The notes under the pieces were generated by a model. The model ran no database searches, was not told the origin of the DNA, and worked only from the letters and a program-made list of their open reading frames with translations. A stretch of DNA of 64,000 nucleotides from a virus: IMG/VR virus record IMGVR_UViG_3300042691_053984, positions 32,001-96,000 of that record. The stretch is one strand, 5' to 3'. The position numbers and the translations under genes were made by a program. Numbering within the stretch: the stretch's first letter is position 1; each line of letters starts with the position of its first letter. Of this stretch, positions 1 to 29,123 are shown piece after piece.

Positions 1-3000
1 GTTGTGTCCACCGCCCCGAGGTAGGTCCGCGACGACCCGCTGAGGGTGGTGAAGGTACCACCTACGTACAAGCTCGACCCAGACACTGCGAGGTCGTTGA
101 CTTGGCTTCCTACGCTTGTGTCTGCGGCAAAGGGCAGCAGGTTGCCAGTCGTTGTGTCCACCGCTCCGAGGCGGAGACGGGACGAGCCGCTGAGGGTGGT
201 GAATGAACCACCTACGAACAGGCTCGATCCCGACACTGCGAGGGCGAGGACGGTGCCACCTGCGTCTGCGGCAAATGGCAACAGGTTGCCAGTCGTTGTG
301 TCCACCGCGCCGAGGCGGTCTCGGGTTGACCCGCTGAGGGTGGTGAAGACTCCTCCGACGTACAGGCTCGACCCCGACACTGCGAGGGCGAGGACGGTGT
401 TGTTGGTGTCCACTTTGAACGTCGCATCCAGCTTTCCGTCAGATCGGATCTTTGCGAGCCTGAGTCTTTGCTCACCCAAGACACCGGTGAAAGATCCACC
501 GATGATGGTGCTGCCGTCAGGCAAAGTGACAGAATCATTAACGTCTCCTCCGCTTGCGGCGATTCCACCCAAGTATCCGGTTCTCTCCGGAGAGATCGCC
601 GTGTTAAAGAATGCACCTCGATCTGCGGCCTTAAACGGAGAGCCGAATGTGCCGGCCATGTAAAGATCTGAACCCGTGACGACGATGTTGTTGACGTTCA
701 GCGTCGCCAGGCTCGTGGATCCCACCCTGAGTCCCGACCGATTTATCTCTCCCGTTCCCGCGTTGACCGTTATGAGCCCGTTGAACTGTGTGGGTTCCAG
801 CGCGTTCGAGGCTCCCGTAAACTGCCCGCCGATGAACACCTTGCTTCCCAAGGAGGAGATTGTACTAACATCGGTTCCCCTAATTGATGGGTTGATGGTA
901 CGAGCCCCCAACGCCGTTGATGTTGCTCCGAAGAACGTGCGCGGGATAGTCGACGTAATCCTCGTGAACGAACCTCCCCAGTACAAGGTCGACCCAGACA
1001 GGGCCAAGGCAAGGACGGAACCATTAGCTCCAATATTACCCACGGGGGTGCCTGTCGTGGTGTTCACAGCACCACCGTAGAGTGCGCTTGAACCAGAGAG
1101 GGTGGTGAATGTACCTCCTACGAACAGGGTCGATCCAGATACCACCAGGGCCCTGACGCTGGTCGATGTGGTCATGTTTGCGGCAAAGGGCAGCAGGTTG
1201 CCAGTCGTTGTGTTCACCGCCCCGAGGCCGACCCGCGACGAGCCGCTGAGGGTGGTGAAGACTCCACCTACGTACAGGGCCGAGCCGGAAACGGCCAGGA
1301 CCCAGGGGACGGCGTTGGCGTCTGCGGCGAACGGCGTCGGTGCCCCTGTCGTCGTGTTCACAGCACCGAGGCTGTTCCGCGACGACCCGCTGAGGGTGGT
1401 GAAGGTACCACCTACGTACAAGCTTGATCCAGACACCTCTAGCGAGTAAACTGTGGACGGTGCGTTTGTGTTTGCGGCAAACGGCCTCAGGTTGCCAGTC
1501 GTTGTGTCCACCGCTCCGAGGCTGACTCGGGACGAGCCGCTGATGGTGGAGAAAAATCCTCCGATGAACAACGACGATCCGGACACCTTCAGGGCTTGGA
1601 CTGTGTTTCCTACGTTGGGATTAAACGCAAGGTCCAGCGTGCCATCAGATTTTATCTTTGCCACGTTGTTTCTTGCTACGCCGAGGACGCTGGAGAACGC
1701 TCCTCCGATGAACACGCTTCCTTCAGGTAAACCGGCAGACGCGTTGATGACGCCGAGAGCGCTGCCCGATGTCACGTCCACGTAGTTGGTGATCGCGCCC
1801 GGTAGCGTGGGATCCCCGTCAATCAACAATCCTGAGGCTGCGTTCTCCACGTAGTGTTGAAACATTCCGCCGATATAGAGATCCGAACCTGTGACGGCGA
1901 GGGTGCTGACGGACCCAGATAGACCAAACCTCGCATCAAATGATCCGTCGATGGCACCCGTAGTCGAATCAACAACGCCGAAGCGGTTCCTGTTTTGGTT
2001 GGAAATTCTGGTGAACTCTCCGCCTACATACAACCTAGAACCTGAAACCGCCAGAGCCCTGACTGCGCCGTTCGCGTCTGCGGCAAACGCCGTGGGCGCC
2101 CCCGTTGTGGTGTTCACAGCACCGGTGTAGGATTTTGTCGAACCGCTGAGGGTCGTGAAGTTACCCCCGACGTACAGGCTTGACCCCGACACTGCCAGGG
2201 CGAAGACGGCGCTATTTGTGGACGCAGCAAATGGCCTCAGGTTGCCAGTCGTTGTGTCCACCGCGGCGAGGCACAACCGGGTTGACCCGCTGAGGGTGTT
2301 GAAGATTCCACCCGCGTACAAAGCAGACCCAGACACTACGAGGGCGTAGACGCTACCGTTTGCGTTCGGGTTCCACGAAGAATTGAGCGTACCGTCCGCG
2401 TTGATCTTGGCCAGCCTGTTCCTTGTCTGTCCGAGGATGGTCGTGAAGTCTCCACCGACAATCACGCTGTTGTCAGGAAGAACGACAGAGGCAGAGACAG
2501 CCGCGTTGGTCGCGAGACTCTTGATGTTGAGGAACCCAGAATCTGACTTTCTCGCAGACATTCCACCCTGGACAACCCTGGTTTTTTGCCTGAAAGCCCC
2601 TCCCAAGAACACATCCGATCCCCAGATAGAAATGGAGTTCACTCCGCCGTCGACGGCGCTCGATGAAATAAATGTCCCTGTCGTCGTATCCACCACGGCA
2701 AAATTGTTTTGAAGCGTTCCGGTGATAGAGGTGAAAACTCCACCCACGTACAGTCTTGACCCCGACACCGCCAGGGCGTTGACGTTGCCGTTCGCGTCTG
2801 CGGCAAACGACGTCGGTGTTCCGGTGGTGGTGTTCACAGCACCGAGGTCGGAGCGTACAGAGCCGCTGAGAGCGGTGAAGTCTCCTCCTACGTACAAGGC
2901 GGATCCAGAGACCGCCAGAGCTCTGACAGCTGTTCCGCCTGTCGCACCAGCGGCAAAAGACCTCAAGTTGCCCGTCGTGGTGTCCACCGCGCCGAGGCGG

Positions 3001-5027
3001 TCTCGGGCTGAGCCGCTGAGGGTGGTGAAGTCTCCGCCTACGAATAGGCTCGACCCCGACACCGCCAGGGCGTAGACGAGGGAACCGGATGATACATCTG
3101 CGGAGAAATTCTGAAAAACCAGGCTCTTGTCTAGAACACCGGAACCGTATGTTTTTCTATAGTTGGCGTTGAGCGCTGCGAGCTTTTGTTTCCTTGAGAG
3201 GTATATGTGTTCTCCCGGTGACAGCCACAGCTCATTATTTCTCATGAAAAGATGGGAGATGCTGCCGCGGGTTCCCAGAATTTCCTGAGATTTTATGTTT
3301 CCCGTCGTGGTGTCCACGGCTCCAAAGCAGGCCTGCAACGACCCGCTGAGGGCGCCGAAAGTTCCGCCCACGTACAAGGTCGACCCCGACACCGCCAGGG
3401 CGTTGACTGTGTTGTTTGTGTCTGCGGCAAATGGAAGCAGGTTACCAGTCGTGGTGTCCACCGCGGCGAGGCGGTTTCGGGCTGAGCCACTGAGGGTGGT
3501 GAATGTACCACCTACGAACAGGCTCGACCCAGACAACGTCAGGAAGTTGACTGTGTTGTTTGTGTCTGCGGCAAATGGAAGCAGGTTACCAGTCGTGGTG
3601 TCCACCGCGGCGAGATCGAGGCGTTGTACGCCTTGTACGACTGAGAAAGCCCCTCCGACGAATAGCGTCGATCCTGACAACACCAGCTCGTTGACGTTGC
3701 CGTTCACGTATGGAACGAAGGCCTTCACGTTGCCCGTCGTGGTGTCCACCGCCCCGAGGAAGTCTCGGAATGATCCGCTGAGGGTGGAGAATGTACCTCC
3801 GACGAACAGGGTCGATCCAGATACCACCAGGGCGCTGACGGTGCTGTTGGCGGTTGCCTCAAACCTTGTGGCCTGACCTGTCGTGATGTCCACCGCCCCA
3901 AGACGGGTTCGAATTGAGCCACCCAAGGCGCTGAACTGTCCGCCCACGTACAAGGTCGACCCAGACACTGCGAGGGAGTTGACGGTGCTGCTCGGTTCCG
4001 GATTAAATATAGGATCCAGGGTATCATCGGCCCTTATCTTTACGAGGTTTCTCCTTACCTCCCCCAAGATATTTGTGAAGGAGCCTCCGACAATGGTGCT
4101 GCCGTCCGGCAGGTCGATTGACGTGAAAACTGTGCCGAAGGCGCCGAGAGGATATCTCTTTATTTGACCGTTTACCGTGTTGAGGGAGAACAACCTCTCG
4201 CCGTTCGTGCCGACGTAATCAAAGTCTCCGCCCGCAAACAACGTAGATCCGGACAACTTCAGCGCCCTTACAGTCGAGTTCGTCGTCACGTCCCAAGACG
4301 ATAGTTGTCCGTCGCTGCCTATGTGCGCAAGGTTGTTTCTGCGGTCTTCATTGCACCTCGTGAACGTACCTCCGACAAATGCGCCGCCCGTTCCGTCAGG
4401 CTCTATGGCCAGGACAGTTCCGTTGATTCCGACGAGGGCGTCCCTTGCTTGAGTTGAGATAGAGGCAAAATCAAAAGATCCCCTCCTCCCCTCGAGGGGT
4501 CTCGATCCCGTGAGGGCGACCCCAAACCCTTTGACATTTTCGTCGATATTGACGGAACCGTCTGACCCGGACGTCAACCGGATATTTCCGCCGGCCTTCA
4601 GGTAATCGCTGCCGTCGACGAGCCTCGCCAGAGAGCCTGAGATTGTGTCAACGACGAGTGCATTCGTGGTCTTGTTGAACGTGAACGTGGACGATCCGTT
4701 GACCGCAGTCCCACCGTCATTGAAAAACACACTCCCGTCGACGCCGGGCGGCGTCGACGGGGCTGCGGTGGATGAGATGGTGATCGATCCGTTTGAGGCA
4801 GAGGCGATCTGAACGTTCTCCCCTGCGATCAAGTATGATGATCCGTCTGAAAGCCGCGTCAAAGATCCTGACAGGCCTTCAGGTATGCTGATCGCGTGCA
4901 ACCCTTGGTTCAGTACCGTGTAGGGTGACTGTGTGACAGGTTCCGCTGTGTCTCTTTCTACCTGAGATTGAGATTCTACCGTTGATCTTTCTTGCTCTAT
5001 GACACTTAGGTTGTCTTCTCTTGACAT
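1..5027 (-). CDS. Giant beta-propeller repeat protein, probable tail fibre/adhesin (>=1675 aa, 3' end off the window)
   Basis: Translated by hand from ATG at 5027 (AGGAGG upstream); frame is consistent at position 3 and through 3180-3300, and I saw no stop. ~48-aa repeats of type V.ALAVSGS.L(F/Y)VGG.FTTLSGS.R..LGAVDTTTG.L.PFAAD. Absent from the ORF track because it is open-ended. Confidence 0.85.
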   Translation of the reverse strand, partial: MSREDNLSVIEQERSTVESQSQVERDTAEPVTQSPYTVLNQGLHAISIPEGLSGSLTRLSDGSSYLIAGENVQIASASNGSITISSTAAPSTPPGVDGSVFFNDGGTAVNGSSTFTFNKTTNALVVDTISGSLARLVDGSDYLKAGGNIRLTSGSDGSVNIDENVKGFGVALTGSRPLEGRRGSFDFASISTQARDALVGINGTVLAIEPDGTGGAFVGGTFTRCNEDRRNNLAHIGSDGQLSSWDVTTNSTVRALKLSGSTLFAGGDFDYVGTNGERLFSLNTVNGQIKRYPLGAFGTVFTSIDLPDGSTIVGGSFTNILGEVRRNLVKIRADDTLDPIFNPEPSSTVNSLAVSGSTLYVGGQFSALGGSIRTRLGAVDITTGQATRFEATANSTVSALVVSGSTLFVGGTFSTLSGSFRDFLGAVDTTTGNVKAFVPYVNGNVNELVLSGSTLFVGGAFSVVQGVQRLDLAAVDTTTGNLLPFAADTNNTVNFLTLSGSSLFVGGTFTTLSGSARNRLAAVDTTTGNLLPFAADTNNTVNALAVSGSTLYVGGTFGALSGSLQACFGAVDTTTGNIKSQEILGTRGSISHLFMRNNELWLSPGEHIYLSRKQKLAALNANYRKTYGSGVLDKSLVFQNFSADVSSGSLVYALAVSGSSLFVGGDFTTLSGSARDRLGAVDTTTGNLRSFAAGATGGTAVRALAVSGSALYVGGDFTALSGSVRSDLGAVNTTTGTPTSFAADANGNVNALAVSGSRLYVGGVFTSITGTLQNNFAVVDTTTGTFISSSAVDGGVNSISIWGSDVFLGGAFRQKTRVVQGGMSARKSDSGFLNIKSLATNAAVSASVVLPDNSVIVGGDFTTILGQTRNRLAKINADGTLNSSWNPNANGSVYALVVSGSALYAGGIFNTLSGSTRLCLAAVDTTTGNLRPFAASTNSAVFALAVSGSSLYVGGNFTTLSGSTKSYTGAVNTTTGAPTAFAADANGAVRALAVSGSRLYVGGEFTRISNQNRNRFGVVDSTTGAIDGSFDARFGLSGSVSTLAVTGSDLYIGGMFQHYVENAASGLLIDGDPTLPGAITNYVDVTSGSALGVINASAGLPEGSVFIGGAFSSVLGVARNNVAKIKSDGTLDLAFNPNVGNTVQALKVSGSSLFIGGFFSTISGSSRVSLGAVDTTTGNLRPFAANTNAPSTVYSLEVSGSSLYVGGTFTTLSGSSRNSLGAVNTTTGAPTPFAADANAVPWVLAVSGSALYVGGVFTTLSGSSRVGLGAVNTTTGNLLPFAANMTTSTSVRALVVSGSTLFVGGTFTTLSGSSALYGGAVNTTTGTPVGNIGANGSVLALALSGSTLYWGGSFTRITSTIPRTFFGATSTALGARTINPSIRGTDVSTISSLGSKVFIGGQFTGASNALEPTQFNGLITVNAGTGEINRSGLRVGSTSLATLNVNNIVVTGSDLYMAGTFGSPFKAADRGAFFNTAISPERTGYLGGIAASGGDVNDSVTLPDGSTIIGGSFTGVLGEQRLRLAKIRSDGKLDATFKVDTNNTVLALAVSGSSLYVGGVFTTLSGSTRDRLGAVDTTTGNLLPFAADAGGTVLALAVSGSSLFVGGSFTTLSGSSRLRLGAVDTTTGNLLPFAADTSVGSQVNDLAVSGSSLYVGGTFTTLSGSSRTYLGAVDT
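26..4170. repeat. Intragenic degenerate tandem repeats (~144-nt unit) encoding propeller blades
   Basis: Recurring GTTGTGTCCACCGC / CCGCTGAGGGTGGTGAA motifs. Exact 69-nt repeat at 3402-3470 and 3546-3614; exact 49-nt repeat at 26-74 and 1376-1424. Confidence 0.9.
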
Positions 5028-5050
5028 TTTTTATCCTCCTCGGTTTGGTA

Positions 5051-6004
5051 TTAAACGACTGGAATCGTTGCGATGAATGAGACGCGTAGGTTTTGTGTCT
5101 GCCCGATGTAAAAATTACCGGACCCCCACGCTAGAGGTTGAGAAACCGAGGAGAGATCTTGTCCCACGAGCACAAGCGTCGTTGCCGTGTCTGGCACCAC
5201 TGACCATCCTCCACCTGAGCCTGCTACGTCAGCCAGCAAGGCCGACATTCCAACGTGTGTACCGTCTACGTACTTTGGCGGCGTTCCCGCGGTCAAAGAC
5301 GTGGAGAAACCGGGAGGTAAGGAGATCTTGTATGTGCCGCTTCCCGCGGAAGAACCCGCAGACGCCTCGTACGAAAGACTGAACATCAGGGTCATCATTT
5401 TACCCTGCACCGCATACTTACCGTAAATGTTGTGCACGGTGGGTAAGGTCGGGGAGGTTGTCGTGGCAGTGACGGCGGGAGTGTATGAGAACCACGATGT
5501 CTCATTTGTCGCCGTGGACGTGATCGTGACCGAACCATTCGCACCAGTCACCAACAGGACGCCCGTTCCGCCTCTCAGGAAGGCAGTACCGTTTGCAAGA
5601 TTTGTCAAAGAGCCCGACAGATTTGTGACGCGGAGGGTGTTCGTGGCGCTGTTAAAGGTAAAATTTGAAGATCCACCAAAAGTGCCGCCATCGTTGAATT
5701 GAACCTCGGTGTCTGCACCCCCTGGCACTGGAACACCTGCCGTCGAAGAAATGGTGATCGACCCATTTGATCCTGTGCTCAGTACGACGTTAGTACCTGC
5801 GACGAGGTAGTCTTCGCCGGTCGCCAACCTTGTCAACGAGCCGCTGAGACCCAACGGGAAACTGGATGGGCCATCCGACGGTAGAACGATGACTCCTGGG
5901 TTTGGTGCGGCGAGGACTGGGTCTGGACCCCTCTCTGCCGAAGCCTGTTGTTCAGCAACGACTCTGTCTGTTTCGATCTGATCTAAACTGGATTCTCTTG
6001 ACAT
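5051..6004 (-). CDS. Short tail-fibre-like protein; N-terminus paralogous to the giant propeller protein
   Basis: GLSGSLTRL..G.DYL.AG.NV...TGSNGSITISST and QFNDGG motifs; C-terminal W.SYTP..T...G.Y..QGK fibre-like domain. Confidence 0.7.
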   Translation of the reverse strand: MSRESSLDQIETDRVVAEQQASAERGPDPVLAAPNPGVIVLPSDGPSSFPLGLSGSLTRLATGEDYLVAGTNVVLSTGSNGSITISSTAGVPVPGGADTEVQFNDGGTFGGSSNFTFNSATNTLRVTNLSGSLTNLANGTAFLRGGTGVLLVTGANGSVTITSTATNETSWFSYTPAVTATTTSPTLPTVHNIYGKYAVQGKMMTLMFSLSYEASAGSSAGSGTYKISLPPGFSTSLTAGTPPKYVDGTHVGMSALLADVAGSGGGWSVVPDTATTLVLVGQDLSSVSQPLAWGSGNFYIGQTQNLRVSFIATIPVV

Positions 6005-21028: not shown

Positions 21029-21835
21029 TTATACGCAATGCTGTGTATTTTTATACTGACAATATGTGCAAGAGTCCCTGTTTTTTAGGGCAATTCCCTT
21101 TCTAACGGAAGAGATCATGCTATTAAGGGCCTTTAATGCACGTCCAGACGTTACGTCTCCAACGGAGACTTTGACCAATTCACAATGCGAGCCTCTCTTT
21201 GCGGATCTTTTAAGCAAGACAAATCCACACCTTACGTGTCGTGGGTCTATGTTTGTCTTGCCTGACCAAAAGTTTTTATAGAATATGAGTTGTTGCTGGA
21301 TTTTATGATCAGACTTTTTATCAGCCGTCCAACCCCACGCTGTGGTCTTCCAGTCTAATAACCAATATTGGTCTTCCCCTCTTTTCCCCTTTGTCTTGAT
21401 GATTCCATCAATAAATCCCTTGAATGCGTGATTCGGATGTTTTTCAATCGCCTCGTACAGGGCATGCTCTGCATCTACTGTTTCCCACGAAGGAAAATTA
21501 TCTTCAAGAAATTGTGGAATGTCAGCCAAAATGTCAATTGCCTCTCGCTTAAAAGAGTCAAGTAATTCAGTCTTGTATTCTGCAATTTCTTTGTTTTTTT
21601 CAAAAGACTCGATCAACAAATTGACCGCAACATCTGTGTTCATCACACGTGTTTTTAAAAAATCTTCGCATGAAGCGTGTACCGCGGTGCCAAAGTCCAA
21701 GATAGGTGAAGGAACAAAAAGGTCAATCTTATCGATGTGCCTCAGTTTGTGACGATAGGAACAGTCTTGCCACTCCTTCAATTCACTGAAACTTACGTGA
21801 GGTTTTCCTGTGGGAAGATTTTCAAAAGCGCTCAT
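21029..21835 (-). CDS. PD-(D/E)XK nuclease, AddB/RecB-like with probable Fe-S staple
   Basis: VSFSEL...C; FGTAVH; FKGFIDG...LLDWKT; QL.FY; C-terminal CTYCQYKNTQHC plus N-terminal Cys. Confidence 0.88.
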   Translation of the reverse strand: MSAFENLPTGKPHVSFSELKEWQDCSYRHKLRHIDKIDLFVPSPILDFGTAVHASCEDFLKTRVMNTDVAVNLLIESFEKNKEIAEYKTELLDSFKREAIDILADIPQFLEDNFPSWETVDAEHALYEAIEKHPNHAFKGFIDGIIKTKGKRGEDQYWLLDWKTTAWGWTADKKSDHKIQQQLIFYKNFWSGKTNIDPRHVRCGFVLLKRSAKRGSHCELVKVSVGDVTSGRALKALNSMISSVRKGIALKNRDSCTYCQYKNTQHCV

Positions 21836-21886
21836 TGTCAAAATTTAAACAAAAATAAAAAAAAGTTCAATCTAGTTAGATTGAAC
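21835..21886 (-). promoter_or_regulatory. Putative sigma-70-like promoter (TTGAAC-N17-TAAATT, leaderless) overlapped by a 10-bp inverted repeat
   Basis: GTTCAATCTA-gt-TAGATTGAAC at 21865-21886; -10 at 21847-21842 lies 6 nt before ATG 21835. The hairpin is followed by a U-tract on the minus strand, so it may also terminate the upstream operon. Confidence 0.5.
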
Positions 21887-21908
21887 CTTTAAGTTTAGTT
21901 GAAGTTAT

Positions 21909-22196
21909 TCAGCTTCTTTTTGAGACAGCACGCCCTAATTGTCTCTCCCAATCTTTGTCTTTTCTGACCTCCTTGTTCTTTTCCCAAGCGGCCTGCAGAA
22001 CGACTGGATTTACGTCTAAATTCTTAGAAAGCTTAATTAAAGCGTTGATATCTTTTGGAAAACAATTGTGGACAACAATGTTATTGCACACCCAAAACAA
22101 ATCATCATTTTTCTCATCAAGGGATGAAAGTTCTAAATTGTGAACTGTTCCGGTGTACGACAATCTTTCAATTTTTTCGATTTTTGCAGTTTTCAT
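21909..22196 (-). CDS. C-half of fractured UDP-glucose dehydrogenase: split-intein IntC (44 aa) + C-extein (51 aa)
   Basis: VHNLEL (block F) ... NNIVVHN|CFPKDINAL: intein HN terminus followed by the dehydrogenase catalytic Cys motif. Confidence 0.92.
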   Translation of the reverse strand: MKTAKIEKIERLSYTGTVHNLELSSLDEKNDDLFWVCNNIVVHNCFPKDINALIKLSKNLDVNPVVLQAAWEKNKEVRKDKDWERQLGRAVSKRS

Positions 22197-22900
22197 AAAA
22201 TGTTTTTTTCCTTGAGTTCATCATCAAAAACAAGTCTTATCTTCAACTCAGGATTAGACTTTTTTATATTTTCCCATTTTTTTTCATTTAAACTAAAGTG
22301 ATATTTATTTTTGATATCAATATATTCATCGGAATCAGGAAGGTAAAAATCTGGATAGTATGATTTCTCTGAACCGTTTTCATCCTTATACTTGATTCTT
22401 CCTTTGTGGGCTACAAAATTTACTCCTTCATTTTGTAGCCATCTTGCGTATGCAAGTTCCCATGTTCCCTGTAGCTTACAAATGGAGCCGTCAGATTTTT
22501 CAAAGTCAAACCATTTACACTTTCCTACTTTGACGCCATCAAACTTTCCTTCAGCCCAAGCCTTTTTTACAAGTTCACGTGTCATGTTTTTAAAATTTTC
22601 ATCTGACTTGAACCTTTCAGATCTTTTCTTCCCTGCTTTGACTGCAATCTCGGGATTTTTCATCGGATTTTTTTCACCTGAAATATATCCTTTTTCAAGG
22701 TGAGTCTTTGAAACCTTTTTTGCCCACTCAGGATGAGTTTCTTTTGTTCGATAAGTTTTTCCAAACGATGGATTTTTTTCTCCGGTTTGGAATAGGCTCA
22801 CACATTTTGTAGAACAAAATTTTCTTTTTCTTTCTTTGTAAGAAACTGTGAACAAAACTTGGCAGTTTTTACAACTTATGTCAATTTTTTTCATACCCAT
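22193..22900 (-). mobile_element. Free-standing homing-endonuclease-like gene (Zn finger + NUMOD3-like + PD-(D/E)XK) between split-intein halves
   Basis: CKNC...FCSTKC; GEKNPSFGK and GEKNPM; QGTWELAYARWL...YYPDFYLP...YIDIK. Confidence 0.8.
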
Positions 22901-22922
22901 AGGTATTGGCGGTCATTGCTTT

Positions 22923-23975
22923 TCATATGGTAAAAAGTTCATCTGTTTCTAAAATTTCAGATGCTTGAATGAGCAAAATTTGATTGTTTCTCTTGATTGG
23001 TAGGATATGACACGGTGTACAGGTTACTGACGTTTCAGTACCGTTGACAATGACTGTGAATTTGATCACTTCACCATGATAAGCACGAGCATGAATTTCT
23101 TCAACTCGCTTAGTGTTCGTTTCATTTAAAGTGTGATTTGAACTAATGACTGAATCATATGGTTTGATATCTTGAACTAAGACGCTGCCTTTTTCGGTTA
23201 GCACGGCGGTGTCACCGACAATACAATGCCCGCCGTACCCACGATCCCCATCGGGACCGGGAACTGACCAATGAGAATTTCCCAATCTTACATCATACTT
23301 TGCGTATTCAACGACTTTATCGTAGTCAATGTTTAGACCGTCCTTATCCAAAGCCTCACAAATTTGCGACATCTCGTTCGCAAATGAGACCTTTGTGGCT
23401 AAGAAACAATTAGTCACGTACTTCACCATTTCCGCAGTAGTTGAAGACGTTTTGATGAGCGGAACCTTGGGAAATGCTGTTTGAAACACTTGCTTTACCC
23501 TGTTGATCCAGGGCCGAGGTCCACCGAGGATTATTCGATTCTGGTTTCTCATGTCATCGAGGGCGTTTGCCTCTGTGAGGAACTCAGGATTGAAGACAAC
23601 CTTGAGACCGGTTCCTTCAAACTTTTTGTTCCAACTCTCTGTGGAACCGGGTGGTACTGTTGACTTTACTACCGCGATTCGTTCTCCGGGGATATCTGCC
23701 AGCTCCTGAAGCACACCACCCACGATGGACAGGTCGGCCTCTCCGTCCTCATACATGGGAGTGGGTAAACACACAAAGTAAACCCCTGAGAAATTATCTT
23801 GTGCCTCACAAGAGGCCACAAGATCACCCGTAGATGCTGCATTTCCAAGGCTGCCTTCGGCACACTTTCCCGCCTTGTCATATGTGTGAACCTTGAAACC
23901 TCTTTCCGAGAAAACAGTGGTGATTGAACCACCTACGAAACCTTGACCGATCACAGCGATAGAATTTTGAGACAT
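22923..23975 (-). CDS. ugd: N-half of fractured UDP-glucose/GDP-mannose dehydrogenase: N-extein (250 aa) + split-intein IntN (100 aa)
   Basis: IGQGFVGG, CLPTP, KSTVPPG, NPEFL, EMVKYVTNCFLATKVSFANE, PGPDG..GYGGH|CIVGDT..LT (block A), TCTPCH (block B); TGA at 22923. Confidence 0.92.
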   Translation of the reverse strand: MSQNSIAVIGQGFVGGSITTVFSERGFKVHTYDKAGKCAEGSLGNAASTGDLVASCEAQDNFSGVYFVCLPTPMYEDGEADLSIVGGVLQELADIPGERIAVVKSTVPPGSTESWNKKFEGTGLKVVFNPEFLTEANALDDMRNQNRIILGGPRPWINRVKQVFQTAFPKVPLIKTSSTTAEMVKYVTNCFLATKVSFANEMSQICEALDKDGLNIDYDKVVEYAKYDVRLGNSHWSVPGPDGDRGYGGHCIVGDTAVLTEKGSVLVQDIKPYDSVISSNHTLNETNTKRVEEIHARAYHGEVIKFTVIVNGTETSVTCTPCHILPIKRNNQILLIQASEILETDELFTI

Positions 23976-24005
23976 CACGACCACTCCTGATTTGTTAATC
24001 AACGT

Positions 24006-24034: not shown

Positions 24035-24976
24035 TCACGTTAATTCTACCCAGTCCAAAACCGTCGCCGTCTCCGGTCTGATTGGGTTCTTTAGCCAATT
24101 GCCGTTCTGATCGATTGGATTGTTGAAACCGATTGGTCTTGCGACTGCCTCAATTGAATTCGGGTAATTCAAATCATGGTCGCCTTCATTTATGTATTCG
24201 TAGTACTTCCACCCGGTTTCATCCTTTGCGGGCCAATATGCACCATAACGCTTGTTTCCTCTCACTCTGCCTTGCGTGCCTCTTATATCGGTGTATATTG
24301 CAACGGCCTGAGGAACGGCTGAAAGAGTGGCAACGTAATCTTTCATCTTACCCTCTGACATCAACTTCTTGACCTTGAATCGCATTTCATTCTCGGAATC
24401 CATTCCGCCTTCGTGATTTACGTTCTTTTCATGCCACGGTGCTATCTGTTCAATGACAGCTCTGCTGTAGATTGCATCTGCTGACGGACAGATCTTGTCG
24501 CGTGTCAGGTCGGCAAAAAACCTGTTCTTACCTGAGGCAGGTTGTCTTTCAGGTGAAAATTGCCTGATGTCATGGGATCTATGAGTGACCTGTCGTTGTG
24601 CGTCTAACGTGTAAGATCCCACGATGTCAACGTTCATTTCCAAAAATGACATCACGTCTTGCAACCAACCGTTCAAGACAAATTGCATGTCCCCCTGCAA
24701 CATGCAAATATAGTCCCCAGATGCCATCGAGACTATCTTATTTAATCCGATTGCAAACTCATTGGCGTAATTTCTCGTGCCTTGTCTGATCACCTTTACA
24801 CCTCTCTCTTCGAGGCTCAGAAGGTAATCTGACGTTCCATGCTCGATAGATGCATTATCGATGACGATCAATTCCTTGTTTTCGTAATCTTTGGTGGTGT
24901 CTATCAGCGACTCAAGGCAACTTTTAAGATAATAAAGCCTGTTGCAATTGACGATTCCAAAGGTGATCTTTTTCAA
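24035..24976 (-). CDS. Glycosyltransferase family 2
   Basis: ITFGIVNCNRL.YLKSCLESL; LIVIDNAS; likely TTG start overlapping the upstream TGA. Confidence 0.85.
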   Translation of the reverse strand: MKKITFGIVNCNRLYYLKSCLESLIDTTKDYENKELIVIDNASIEHGTSDYLLSLEERGVKVIRQGTRNYANEFAIGLNKIVSMASGDYICMLQGDMQFVLNGWLQDVMSFLEMNVDIVGSYTLDAQRQVTHRSHDIRQFSPERQPASGKNRFFADLTRDKICPSADAIYSRAVIEQIAPWHEKNVNHEGGMDSENEMRFKVKKLMSEGKMKDYVATLSAVPQAVAIYTDIRGTQGRVRGNKRYGAYWPAKDETGWKYYEYINEGDHDLNYPNSIEAVARPIGFNNPIDQNGNWLKNPIRPETATVLDWVELT

Positions 24977-26013
24977 TTTGTCCTCACTGAGTCGATTATT
25001 TCTGCAACGATTGTCGGGAGTGTCTTTGTGATATTCCAACTAGGATAGTGGGATCGAAACTTGGACATGTCACTTATGTAACATATGTGATCTCCGATAC
25101 GCGCTTTGTCCGACACATTAAAGTCTAGTTTATGACCCAAGCTACTCAGGATGCCTATTGTTTCGAGTATCGATGCGTTATTCTGCACTCCGCCGCCGAT
25201 GTTGTAGACTTCGCCCGGGCGTGGGTTTTTCATAAACTCATGGAATGCCGTGCAAACGTCGTATGAATGTATCTGGTCTCTGACCTGCTTTCCTTTGTGT
25301 CCATAAATTGTGTATGGGGTGCCTTTTACTGCACACTTTACGATGTACGACAAGAATCCATGTAATTCAACACCTGCATGCTGTGGGCCTGTGAGGCAGC
25401 CTCCTCTGAACACGCCTACGGGCATACCAAAGTATCGTGCATACTCCTGTGCCAGAAGATCAGCAGATGTCTTTGACACCCCAAATAGAGAGTGTGTCGT
25501 CTGGTCTATTGACATCGATTCGTTGATACCATTGCAATACTTTTCGTCTGCGTAATCGAATCTTGATTCTTTTTCGATCAAGTTCAAACGATTCGGAGTA
25601 TCACCATACACTTTATTGGTGCTGACGTGTACAAACGGAGATTCCGGAGTTGTTAGCCTAGCTGACTCTAGTACGTTTAGGGTACCCACTGCATTCGTGG
25701 CAAAGTCATCATGTGGAATTTTGGCCGCAAGATCGTGTGACGGTTGTGCAGCTGCGTGGACGATGTAGTCCGGCTTATGAATTCCAAATATCTCGAGGAT
25801 TTTTTTGAAATCCCTGATGTCTGAGTCTTCGTGAGTGTAATGAGGGGTTTTGCACAGCTCACTCGTCACAGATGACGTATCGCCGCCAATACCAAAAAAT
25901 GTTTTTCTCATGTTGTTGTCTATACCGACAACACGATGTCCTGCCGCAAGAAAGAATCTTGCGACTTCAGATCCAATCAAACCTGATGCGCCTGTGATTA
26001 AGATTGTTTTCAT
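24973..26013 (-). CDS. NAD-dependent epimerase, CDP-paratose 2-epimerase (tyvelose synthase)-like
   Basis: ITGASGLIG; HAAAQPSHD; STNKVYGD; FRGGCLTGP.H.GVELHGFLSY. Confidence 0.8.
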   Translation of the reverse strand: MKTILITGASGLIGSEVARFFLAAGHRVVGIDNNMRKTFFGIGGDTSSVTSELCKTPHYTHEDSDIRDFKKILEIFGIHKPDYIVHAAAQPSHDLAAKIPHDDFATNAVGTLNVLESARLTTPESPFVHVSTNKVYGDTPNRLNLIEKESRFDYADEKYCNGINESMSIDQTTHSLFGVSKTSADLLAQEYARYFGMPVGVFRGGCLTGPQHAGVELHGFLSYIVKCAVKGTPYTIYGHKGKQVRDQIHSYDVCTAFHEFMKNPRPGEVYNIGGGVQNNASILETIGILSSLGHKLDFNVSDKARIGDHICYISDMSKFRSHYPSWNITKTLPTIVAEIIDSVRTN

Positions 26014-27388: not shown

Positions 27389-28359
27389 AAAATAAATAAT
27401 GCTTGACTCGTCATAGACGACACCTTTGTGTCTATTATGTTTATTGCCCGCTGGATCATGAAATCCATGGTTAGTTCTTGTTGAATTTCTGATACGTTTT
27501 TTTCTAATTCTTTCCATCTATCGTCGAGAAGCAGTTCATCAATCTTTCTTTCCATAGAAAGGAAGTCAAGATCGTATCCCATCGATGAATAGTGAATATT
27601 TTCTTGGCATGTCCATGGCGTGATTTGCTGTTTTAACGCCAAGACACACTTTTCAAGTACCATATATTCATAAAATTTTCTTGAAGAAAGGCCGATTCCA
27701 GGTAGATCTATACAAATCTTGCTTCTACTGATATAGTCATAAAATTCATGTGGTTGCAATATTTGATCAAAAATCTGAACGTTTAGATCTTTTCTTCTGC
27801 TTTTTATGTCATTAAGCACTTGATAGCCCCTGTTTGATGCACCGGGCCACCATCTTTTTGGGTCACGATTTTTAGGCCACGCATGTGGCTTTAATTTAGC
27901 AAACTTCGATCCTCCAGCAAAAAATACATCAATATCTTTGTCAGATTGTGACAACTTCTTCTTTGTACTTTGAATTGTGCGCGGGTCATTGCTAAAAATT
28001 CCTAATGCATGAACGTCTGATTTGAAAGGGTAGAATTGATTGTATTCTGGGTCTGTGTTTACTTGGGATTTCAGTACCAGCACGTCTTGCGGTTTATACG
28101 ATTCAAGGACGTTGTTGTAGGCAGACCAAATGATTTTGCAATCTGCGGTCGTGCCCCCACTCCCGTCATCGGCGTCTATCAGTACCAGTAACCTTTTTTC
28201 GTTTTTTTCGTAAATAAAGGCACCAAAATTTTTTCCTAAATTTTCAGTTGAAAGCCGGTGATCAAGTTTTGAATGGCCTGTCAATATTCTTTTATGCAGC
28301 TCTGATTGAAAATTTAAGATGTGATCTCGTGTATTAATTCCAAAGTGAGTGATCATCAA
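27385..28359 (-). CDS. Glycosyltransferase-like protein (GT-B C-terminal half)
   Basis: DIDVFFAG; YISRSKICIDLPGIG.SSRKFYEYM. Confidence 0.7.
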   Translation of the reverse strand: MMITHFGINTRDHILNFQSELHKRILTGHSKLDHRLSTENLGKNFGAFIYEKNEKRLLVLIDADDGSGGTTADCKIIWSAYNNVLESYKPQDVLVLKSQVNTDPEYNQFYPFKSDVHALGIFSNDPRTIQSTKKKLSQSDKDIDVFFAGGSKFAKLKPHAWPKNRDPKRWWPGASNRGYQVLNDIKSRRKDLNVQIFDQILQPHEFYDYISRSKICIDLPGIGLSSRKFYEYMVLEKCVLALKQQITPWTCQENIHYSSMGYDLDFLSMERKIDELLLDDRWKELEKNVSEIQQELTMDFMIQRAINIIDTKVSSMTSQALFIL

Positions 28360-29123
28360 GTTGTCCTGTTTTCAATTCTTCCAATTAACCTTAATTTTCT
28401 TAATTCATCAATTTCAGGTGCCTCTATTATTCCTGGTATTTTTTTGTAGTTTGTTGACCTATATTCGACTTTTTGCTCATTAGCAACGGGAACGTAGTAA
28501 TACGTAGCCAAAGACTTTCTAGATTTATCTTCTGGGCAGTTTAGAGGCTCTGGGTGTCCGTGGTTTGACGTCTGGTCTGTTCGAAAGATAACCATTCTTC
28601 CAAACAACGGTGAAATCTTTTTTACGCATTGCGACATCTTTGCGTCCCACATCTCAAGATCACCACCATATGATTCTTTCCAATCAGCATTCAAATATAA
28701 GATTACGTTTAATTTTCTAAACGCATTTAACTCTTTATGAATATTGAAGTCTTCATGAATGTCAAGTTTTCCGCCCCGCAAGATTTGGTGTAAGCCACCA
28801 CCGTTTAATTTGGGATCAGCTATTATCCCATAAATCCCAGAAATTTCTTCTAAAAAATTTATGAAGTCTTTTGACTTCATAAATTCAAAAAAATTATGAA
28901 ATATTACAGGTAATTTTTCAATTTCATTGAAAGCCAACTTTTTTTCTAGTGGGTTGTCGTACAACCACCACACTTTTTCAGTTGAGCTTGGAAAATTTTC
29001 CAACAATTCATGCAAAAATTCTTGTGTAAACAAATCATCTATTACGATGTGATTAAATGGTGTGGATGTTGCAAATATTTTTGCATACTGATTTGATAAA
29101 TTTTTTAAATTTTTTTTTAGCAT
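28356..29123 (-). CDS. 2OG-Fe(II) oxygenase (prolyl-hydroxylase-like fold)
   Basis: GGGLHQ...LDIHEDFN (HxD); LNVILYLN..W...GGDLE; HGHP; RKS. Confidence 0.9.
   Translation of the reverse strand: MLKKNLKNLSNQYAKIFATSTPFNHIVIDDLFTQEFLHELLENFPSSTEKVWWLYDNPLEKKLAFNEIEKLPVIFHNFFEFMKSKDFINFLEEISGIYGIIADPKLNGGGLHQILRGGKLDIHEDFNIHKELNAFRKLNVILYLNADWKESYGGDLEMWDAKMSQCVKKISPLFGRMVIFRTDQTSNHGHPEPLNCPEDKSRKSLATYYYVPVANEQKVEYRSTNYKKIPGIIEAPEIDELRKLRLIGRIENRTT

Follow-up and report, generated by a model that had tools for sequence, protein, structure and literature searches.

A phage gene for a short enzyme of the UDP-glucose dehydrogenase (UGDH) family is very probably fractured, directly ahead of the catalytic cysteine, by a class-1 intein that is naturally split, with an endonuclease gene lying between the halves and with an active product that would depend on protein trans-splicing. 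We identified this arrangement on the minus strand of a 64,000-nucleotide stretch of viral DNA (hereafter, the window), which spans bases 32001-96000 of a 132.9-kb IMG/VR record with a CheckV completeness of about 40%. Its genes include those for PhoH, a helicase of phage type and a protein of the baseplate wedge, and a blastn search against GenBank phages returned no close relative.

Organization of the locus

The locus consists of three co-oriented open reading frames (ORFs), all on the minus strand: an N gene, an endonuclease gene and a C gene. The N gene (22923-23975) encodes 350 aa from the ATG at 23975, or occupies 22923-24002 if a TTG start is used. Its product comprises a 250-aa N-extein (23226-23975) that ends in GYGGH and a 100-aa IntN (22926-23225) with CIVGDT as block A, TCTPCH as block B (TxxH) and ETDELFTI at its end, immediately followed by the TGA stop codon (22923-22925). 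The free-standing homing-endonuclease gene (22193-22900, 235 aa) begins 22 nt after this stop, in another frame and with its own start, and its stop codon overlaps the ATG of the C gene by 4 nt (ATGA). The C gene (21909-22196) encodes 95 aa reading MKTAKIEKIER...NNIVVHN and then CFPKD, and is made up of a 44-aa IntC (22065-22196; block F VHNLEL...DDLFWV, block G NNIVVHN) and a C-extein of 51 aa plus stop (21909-22064) that begins with CFPKD and matches positions 62-93 of PF00984. The precursors would have masses of 38 kDa (N-extein with IntN) and 11 kDa (IntC with C-extein).

An earlier note on this DNA, made from the sequence alone, had placed IntN at 23225-22926 and IntC at 22196-22065 with lengths of 100 and 44 aa, and the ORFs reproduced these values. 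It had also described an acidic tail on IntN and a basic start on IntC. This holds mildly for the ends themselves (net charge -2 over the last 30 residues of IntN and +2 over the 20 residues that open IntC), but the net charge of the complete IntC is -2.

A consensus scan, on which the assignment of hairpins rests, found a terminator-like hairpin (21861-21890, minus strand; 13-bp stem and T run) directly 3' of the C gene and none between the three genes. The lack of hairpins within the locus, together with a strong one right after it, suggests a single transcript, and the N, endonuclease and C genes are probably transcribed together. The count of promoter-like sites in the region was not above that in shuffled sequence.

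The fractured gene sits amid glycosyltransferase and short-chain dehydrogenase (SDR) genes for sugar modification, with a neighboring SDR encoded at 24973-26013. After the dehydrogenase gene comes a gene for a PD-(D/E)XK (Cas4/RecB-like) exonuclease (21029-21841), whose position is kept in L005, L034/L035 and L041/L042 whatever the intein state; we considered this gene as a second insertion and rejected the idea in favor of a conserved exonuclease-like neighbor. Positions 1-6000 of the window have a G+C content of 54-59%, compared to 32-46% over most of the remaining window, and are mostly taken up by one open-ended ORF of 1675 aa (3-5027, minus strand).

Splicing residues, junction and predicted fold of the intein

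Cys1, TxxH, the terminal His-Asn and Cys+1 are the standard splicing residues of class-1 inteins. Across three IMG/VR loci with both halves (the window, L005 and L006), the IntN residues C1, D5, T6, T70 and H73 (T70-P-C-H73) were invariant, as were the terminal HN of IntC and the +1 cysteine (VVHN then CFPKD), and the same junction motifs were recognized by eye in four further contigs. With all of these residues present, the window intein is, as judged from its sequence, a class-1 intein. Removing it would be seamless, given that the intein-less homologue L001 reads GDRGYGGHCFPKDINA over the exact junction, with GYGGHCFPKD unbroken. Joining the exteins in silico yields 250 + 51 = 301 aa with a computed mass of 32.9 kDa and restores the UGDH-family signature GGxCxxKD as GGH-CFPKD, as the earlier note had proposed. 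Along with an identical N-half in a separate ENA contig, the exact junction in L001 makes coincidence a poor explanation for the arrangement.

Neither half of the window intein matched the Pfam intein models or NCBIfam at E <= 0.01, although Pfam intein models matched relatives weakly. A single-sequence PDB search with IntN gave a weak match to a bacterial intein-like domain (E 0.053), and the sole match of a word-index search with the IntN region was the window's own protein. Because the Pfam models had missed the window's halves, we tested the fold instead, using the homologue L006, in which the N and C genes lie in the same frame 195 nt apart. IntN, linker and IntC of L006 were read through with 16 stop codons rendered as Gly or Ser, and the halves from the window and L005 served as alignment rows. 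The best AF2 model of this read-through had pLDDT values of 70-90 over IntN and IntC and a disordered linker; it was the only one of five models that folded well (mean pLDDT 56.8), the other four being unfolded at 28-34. Its top Foldseek matches were Hint domains, with target TM-scores of 0.79 for NpuDnaB, 0.76 for gp41-1 and 0.73 for NrdJ-1. The splicing residues, the seamless junction and the Hint fold of the L006 homologue thus agree with the earlier proposal of a split intein at the catalytic cysteine.

The same residues bear on whether the halves splice at all. They might instead assemble non-covalently through intein-derived interaction domains, for which a report on a fragmented phage NrdA offers a precedent (PMC3045599). 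If binding alone were selected, however, the invariance of C1, TxxH, HN and C+1 would be unexpected, and an unspliced Hint domain of 144 aa would sit directly on the catalytic cysteine. We therefore consider assembly without splicing highly unlikely and favor trans-splicing.

The host enzyme is a short form of the UGDH family

The earlier note had called the enzyme a UDP-glucose dehydrogenase, which stands as a family assignment but not as a substrate label. The N-extein matched Pfam PF03721 (6.5e-24) and PF00984 (8.7e-19), which together cover the NAD-binding domain and the greater part of the central domain, and aligned with positions 2-314 of 413 in TIGR03026; the C-extein aligned with positions 267-299 of 429 in NF041297, at the end of the central domain. 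The N-extein was also 62-74% identical to contiguous intein-less homologues in L001-L004. The catalytic cysteine of CFPKD opens the C-extein and would double as the +1 splicing nucleophile. There was no match to the UDP-binding C-terminal domain (PF03720) in the ORFs or elsewhere in the 133-kb record. Hence, we filed the enzyme as a short UGDH-family form, with 'UDP-glucose dehydrogenase' naming the family and leaving the substrate presumptive. A second fracture that had moved the missing domain elsewhere in the record was considered and rejected, as none was found.

Absence of the C-terminal domain does not indicate damage, because the short form is standard in intein-less viral homologues: 28 of them terminate at the corresponding position, measure about 263-375 aa and retain GG[HSTAY]CF[PS]KD. 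The viral short-form enzymes (the window and L001-L031) end in ...DWE..GRAVS. Fusions of the short form were seen in metagenome proteins, with a C-terminal SDR/UXS-like domain in P0094 and P0099 and with an N-terminal methyltransferase in P0087.

The split allele is real, conserved and widespread

Since the record is a metagenome assembly, the interruption could in principle be an assembly or sequencing artifact that conceals either an unbroken gene or an intein in one piece with the endonuclease nested inside it. Against this, the endonuclease lies in a different frame and has its own start, an identical 350-aa N-half was found in a separate ENA contig (P0001), and the same stop-and-restart layout recurs in L005 and L006 at 59-74% nucleotide identity, as well as in Logan and ENA contigs. 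These observations rule out that the stop at 22923 and the frame changes are errors, a concern raised in the earlier note, and leave the artifact explanation with a negligible probability. Locus L005 has the complete layout of the window, from the two halves and the endonuclease to the PD-(D/E)XK and GT4 genes that lie downstream, and L006 has both halves with only a 72-residue endonuclease remnant between them.

To what extent the allele occurs elsewhere was assessed with an exhaustive IntN profile search, which yielded 84 representative clusters that we classified locally with a Pfam check. UGDH-family N-halves that end within a few residues of IntN, after a (T/S)DELF-type motif, made up 27 of the 84 clusters. 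The remainder comprised contiguous mini-inteins in the same enzyme (n = 6), short fragments (n = 13), other or unidentified exteins that end in IntN, including DnaE, RNR and RNA polymerase beta (n = 5), and clusters that fit none of these classes (n = 33). In contigs of five split clusters, a matching IntC-C-extein gene was located downstream in every case. The split UGDH-family allele is therefore widespread, and not rare, in viral metagenomes.

Split loci differ in what lies between the halves. An intact endonuclease of the same family is present in L005, L043 and L045; it has decayed in L006 (the remnant) and L032 (frameshifted), and L041/L042 have only a 63-nt spacer without an endonuclease. 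In L044, an unrelated or unrecognized ORF separates the halves and the C-half carries PF03720. In L032 (2130-2900), a domain resembling dual-specificity phosphatases extends the IntC-C-extein gene of the split allele; L002 and L003 encode this phosphatase in a downstream gene of its own.

Some of these features would also be expected if a mobile element had inactivated the dehydrogenase gene and left a decaying pseudogene whose halves are relics from which no enzyme is made: the enzyme lacks its UDP-binding domain, and copies of the endonuclease decay in the relatives L006 and L032. However, the exteins and intein halves are intact and under purifying selection, with dN/dS values of 0.10-0.24 for IntN and 0.07-0.18 for IntC among the window, L005 and L006, despite divergence that has saturated synonymous sites. 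The short form is moreover the norm among the 28 intein-less viral homologues, and both intein halves are also preserved in loci whose endonuclease has decayed or is absent. Taken together, we give very little credence to the pseudogene explanation. Of the indirect evidence for a dependence of the phages on trans-splicing, this persistence of intact halves after endonuclease loss is the strongest.

The intervening gene encodes a T7-endonuclease-I-like nuclease

The 235-aa product of the intervening ORF combines an N-terminal Cys4 zinc ribbon, NUMOD3-like GEKNP repeats and a C-terminal PD-(D/E)XK nuclease domain (WEL...PDF...DIK). Its C-terminal 80 residues align with the core of T7 endonuclease I, with the PDF and DIK motifs intact, and PDB entry 3cae was matched at E 6.3e-5 with the single sequence and at 4.4e-8 with a six-sequence profile. 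The Pfam model PF05367 scored 26.9 bits, just under its cut-off of 29.1; DUF7487 was also matched, as was the endonuclease family phrog_945 (6.7e-11). The L005 orthologue, in the same position, is 64% identical. Based on these matches and motifs, the endonuclease is a T7-endonuclease-I-like member of the PD-(D/E)XK nucleases. We rejected a Vsr-like or GIY-YIG identity, as there was no Pfam match to Vsr, I-Bth0305I or GIY-YIG, and PDB searches returned no Vsr or I-Bth0305I chains at E <= 10 (single sequence) or E <= 1 (profile).

T7 endonuclease I itself is a junction resolvase and not a mobile gene. Its structures (PDB 3cae, 1m0d, 1fzr and 2pfj) share the PD-(D/E)XK core and the PDF and (D/E)xK motifs with the window ORF but lack the zinc ribbon and the NUMOD3-like DNA-binding repeats, both of which the window endonuclease has.

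Related nucleases were seen in other contexts. The same phage has a free-standing paralogue upstream of the window (L040 961-1797; G000:C1 about 27828-28664), a 278-aa protein with several zinc fingers and the same nuclease domain (WEL...PDFY...EVK); it is flanked by opposite-strand ORFs (745-1038 and 1802-2056) that are putative tRNA genes, going by the look of their translations only. In L002 (3216-4004), the gene of a free-standing endonuclease with NUMOD3 and TnsA-N-like domains immediately precedes a UGDH-family gene that has no intein, and the two overlap at the start of the latter. The encoded protein is a distant relative of the window endonuclease (25% identity, pairwise E 1e-5), and the pair may represent an intron-less or collaborative homing arrangement. 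In a fractured PolB gene (L033 265-1910), a single ORF (P0052, 321 aa) joins an IntN-like domain to a homologous endonuclease domain, IntC and the C-extein of PolB come next (HN then SLYPHIM), and P0036 combines PolB-exo, IntN and endonuclease in one chain. These fusions may be intermediates in the merging of an endonuclease into an intein.

Intein states at the insertion site

The insertion site is empty in most viral homologues, with 28 of 31 IMG/VR loci being intein-less. Where it is occupied, cis mini-inteins and LAGLIDADG maxi-inteins are found at the identical position, the LAGLIDADG-bearing ones among the longer homologues and in both short and full-length UGDHs. Every retrieved intein-bearing UGDH in which both junctions could be read had the insertion as GGx / C...HN / CFPKD.

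A contiguous intein of UDP-glucose 6-dehydrogenase, named 'udp' (UDP-GD), has been described from Methanocaldococcus jannaschii, Halobacteria and Dictyoglomus (PMC4071816). As UGDH relatives share the insertion point, the split intein occupies the site of the contiguous 'udp' intein, and database relatives of the same architecture suggest that the M. jannaschii intein itself lies at exactly this position. The two have in common the host family and insertion directly before the catalytic cysteine. They differ in that 'udp' inteins are a single piece of about 350-480 aa with a nested LAGLIDADG endonuclease, whereas the window intein is split and its endonuclease is a separate gene.

The cis mini-inteins (P0020, P0022, P0037, P0038, P0043 and P0056) share both site and lineage with the split intein of the window, and their loci have a similar phage neighborhood with GT2 and PD-(D/E)XK genes. 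In contrast to the window intein, each is a single polypeptide of about 140-165 aa without an endonuclease, and would hence splice in cis. A tree of IntN, which at 102 columns can be read only coarsely, placed the maxi-inteins in their own clade (99/95), apart from the mini- and split inteins, and grouped the window with L005, L006 and P0003 (98/97). Cis mini-inteins were scattered among the split ones, and the branches with good support require a minimum of two switches between cis and split forms.

Proposed mechanism

We propose that IntN and IntC would associate into a Hint fold and so bring the two precursors together. In the standard four-step reaction of class-1 inteins, Cys1 would then start an N-S acyl shift, the N-extein would pass to the +1 cysteine, itself the nucleophile of the enzyme, and cyclization of Asn44 in IntC would follow, releasing a seamless 301-aa enzyme of 33 kDa that reads GGH-CFPKD. 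The selfish endonuclease presumably cuts intein-less alleles and would in this way spread the cassette. With the intein split and both halves needed by the phage, the halves would remain under selection even after the endonuclease had decayed. Overall, the observations are consistent with a selfish element that has been fixed in its split form.

A more elaborate possibility is that the split state is put to use, with trans-splicing acting as a timed or redox-sensitive gate on the glycan pathway and, separately, with the short dehydrogenase representing an undescribed type that needs a partner SDR, such as the one fused to it in other contigs. The gate is suggested by the identity of the +1 nucleophile with the catalytic cysteine and by the translational coupling of the C-half to the endonuclease gene. 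The earlier note had likewise suggested that sugar supply might be switched post-translationally; none of our results hints at regulation, and we regard this combined reading as very unlikely.

With this locus, the fractured-gene layout extends from enzymes of DNA metabolism to a phage pathway for glycan synthesis, and a T7-endonuclease-I-like family joins the types of endonuclease that accompany split inteins. All stages are found at one site (empty, cis mini-intein, LAGLIDADG maxi-intein, and split with a live, a dead or no endonuclease), which makes the site well suited, as a natural series, to studies of how inteins come to be split and are later fixed in that form. In addition, at least 27 diverged IntN/IntC pairs with Cys1 and Cys+1 and a native GGH/CFP junction are candidate orthogonal tools for trans-splicing.

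Comparison with known fractured genes

Dassa et al. (2009, PMC2677866) described genes fractured by split inteins and accompanied by a homing endonuclease that is encoded separately; these include gp41-1, NrdJ-1, IMPDH-1, NrdA-2, DnaE, ligase and terminase. The gene order is identical in those loci and in the window (N-extein-IntN, endonuclease ORF, IntC-C-extein), the split falls at the canonical point of endonuclease insertion, and the setting is phage or metagenomic in each case. Alleles that are free of an endonuclease also occur in both sets (gp41-7 in Dassa et al. 2009; L041/L042 here), and the Hint fold of the L006 homologue resembles gp41-1 and NrdJ-1.

Three differences stand out. The eight types of host enzyme reported in 2009 were all presented as enzymes of DNA synthesis or repair (PMC2677866), whereas the window enzyme belongs to sugar-nucleotide metabolism. 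The earlier endonucleases were Vsr-like (I-Bth0305I type) or GIY-YIG (PMC2677866), whereas that of the window is T7-endonuclease-I-like and, having no Vsr or GIY-YIG similarity, differs in family from both. Finally, the 22-nt spacer of the window shows no sign of a leader with a hairpin, unlike the 2009 loci.

Full-text literature, searched mostly among non-subscription papers and so not proof of absence, contained no description of a UGDH-family gene broken by a split intein and none of a T7-endonuclease-I-like endonuclease in such a layout. The novelty suggested in the earlier note therefore stands in part: we found no published account of a split UGDH intein, but the allele itself is common in viral metagenomes. 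The layout is thus of a known kind, to which the host enzyme and the family of the accompanying endonuclease are real additions.
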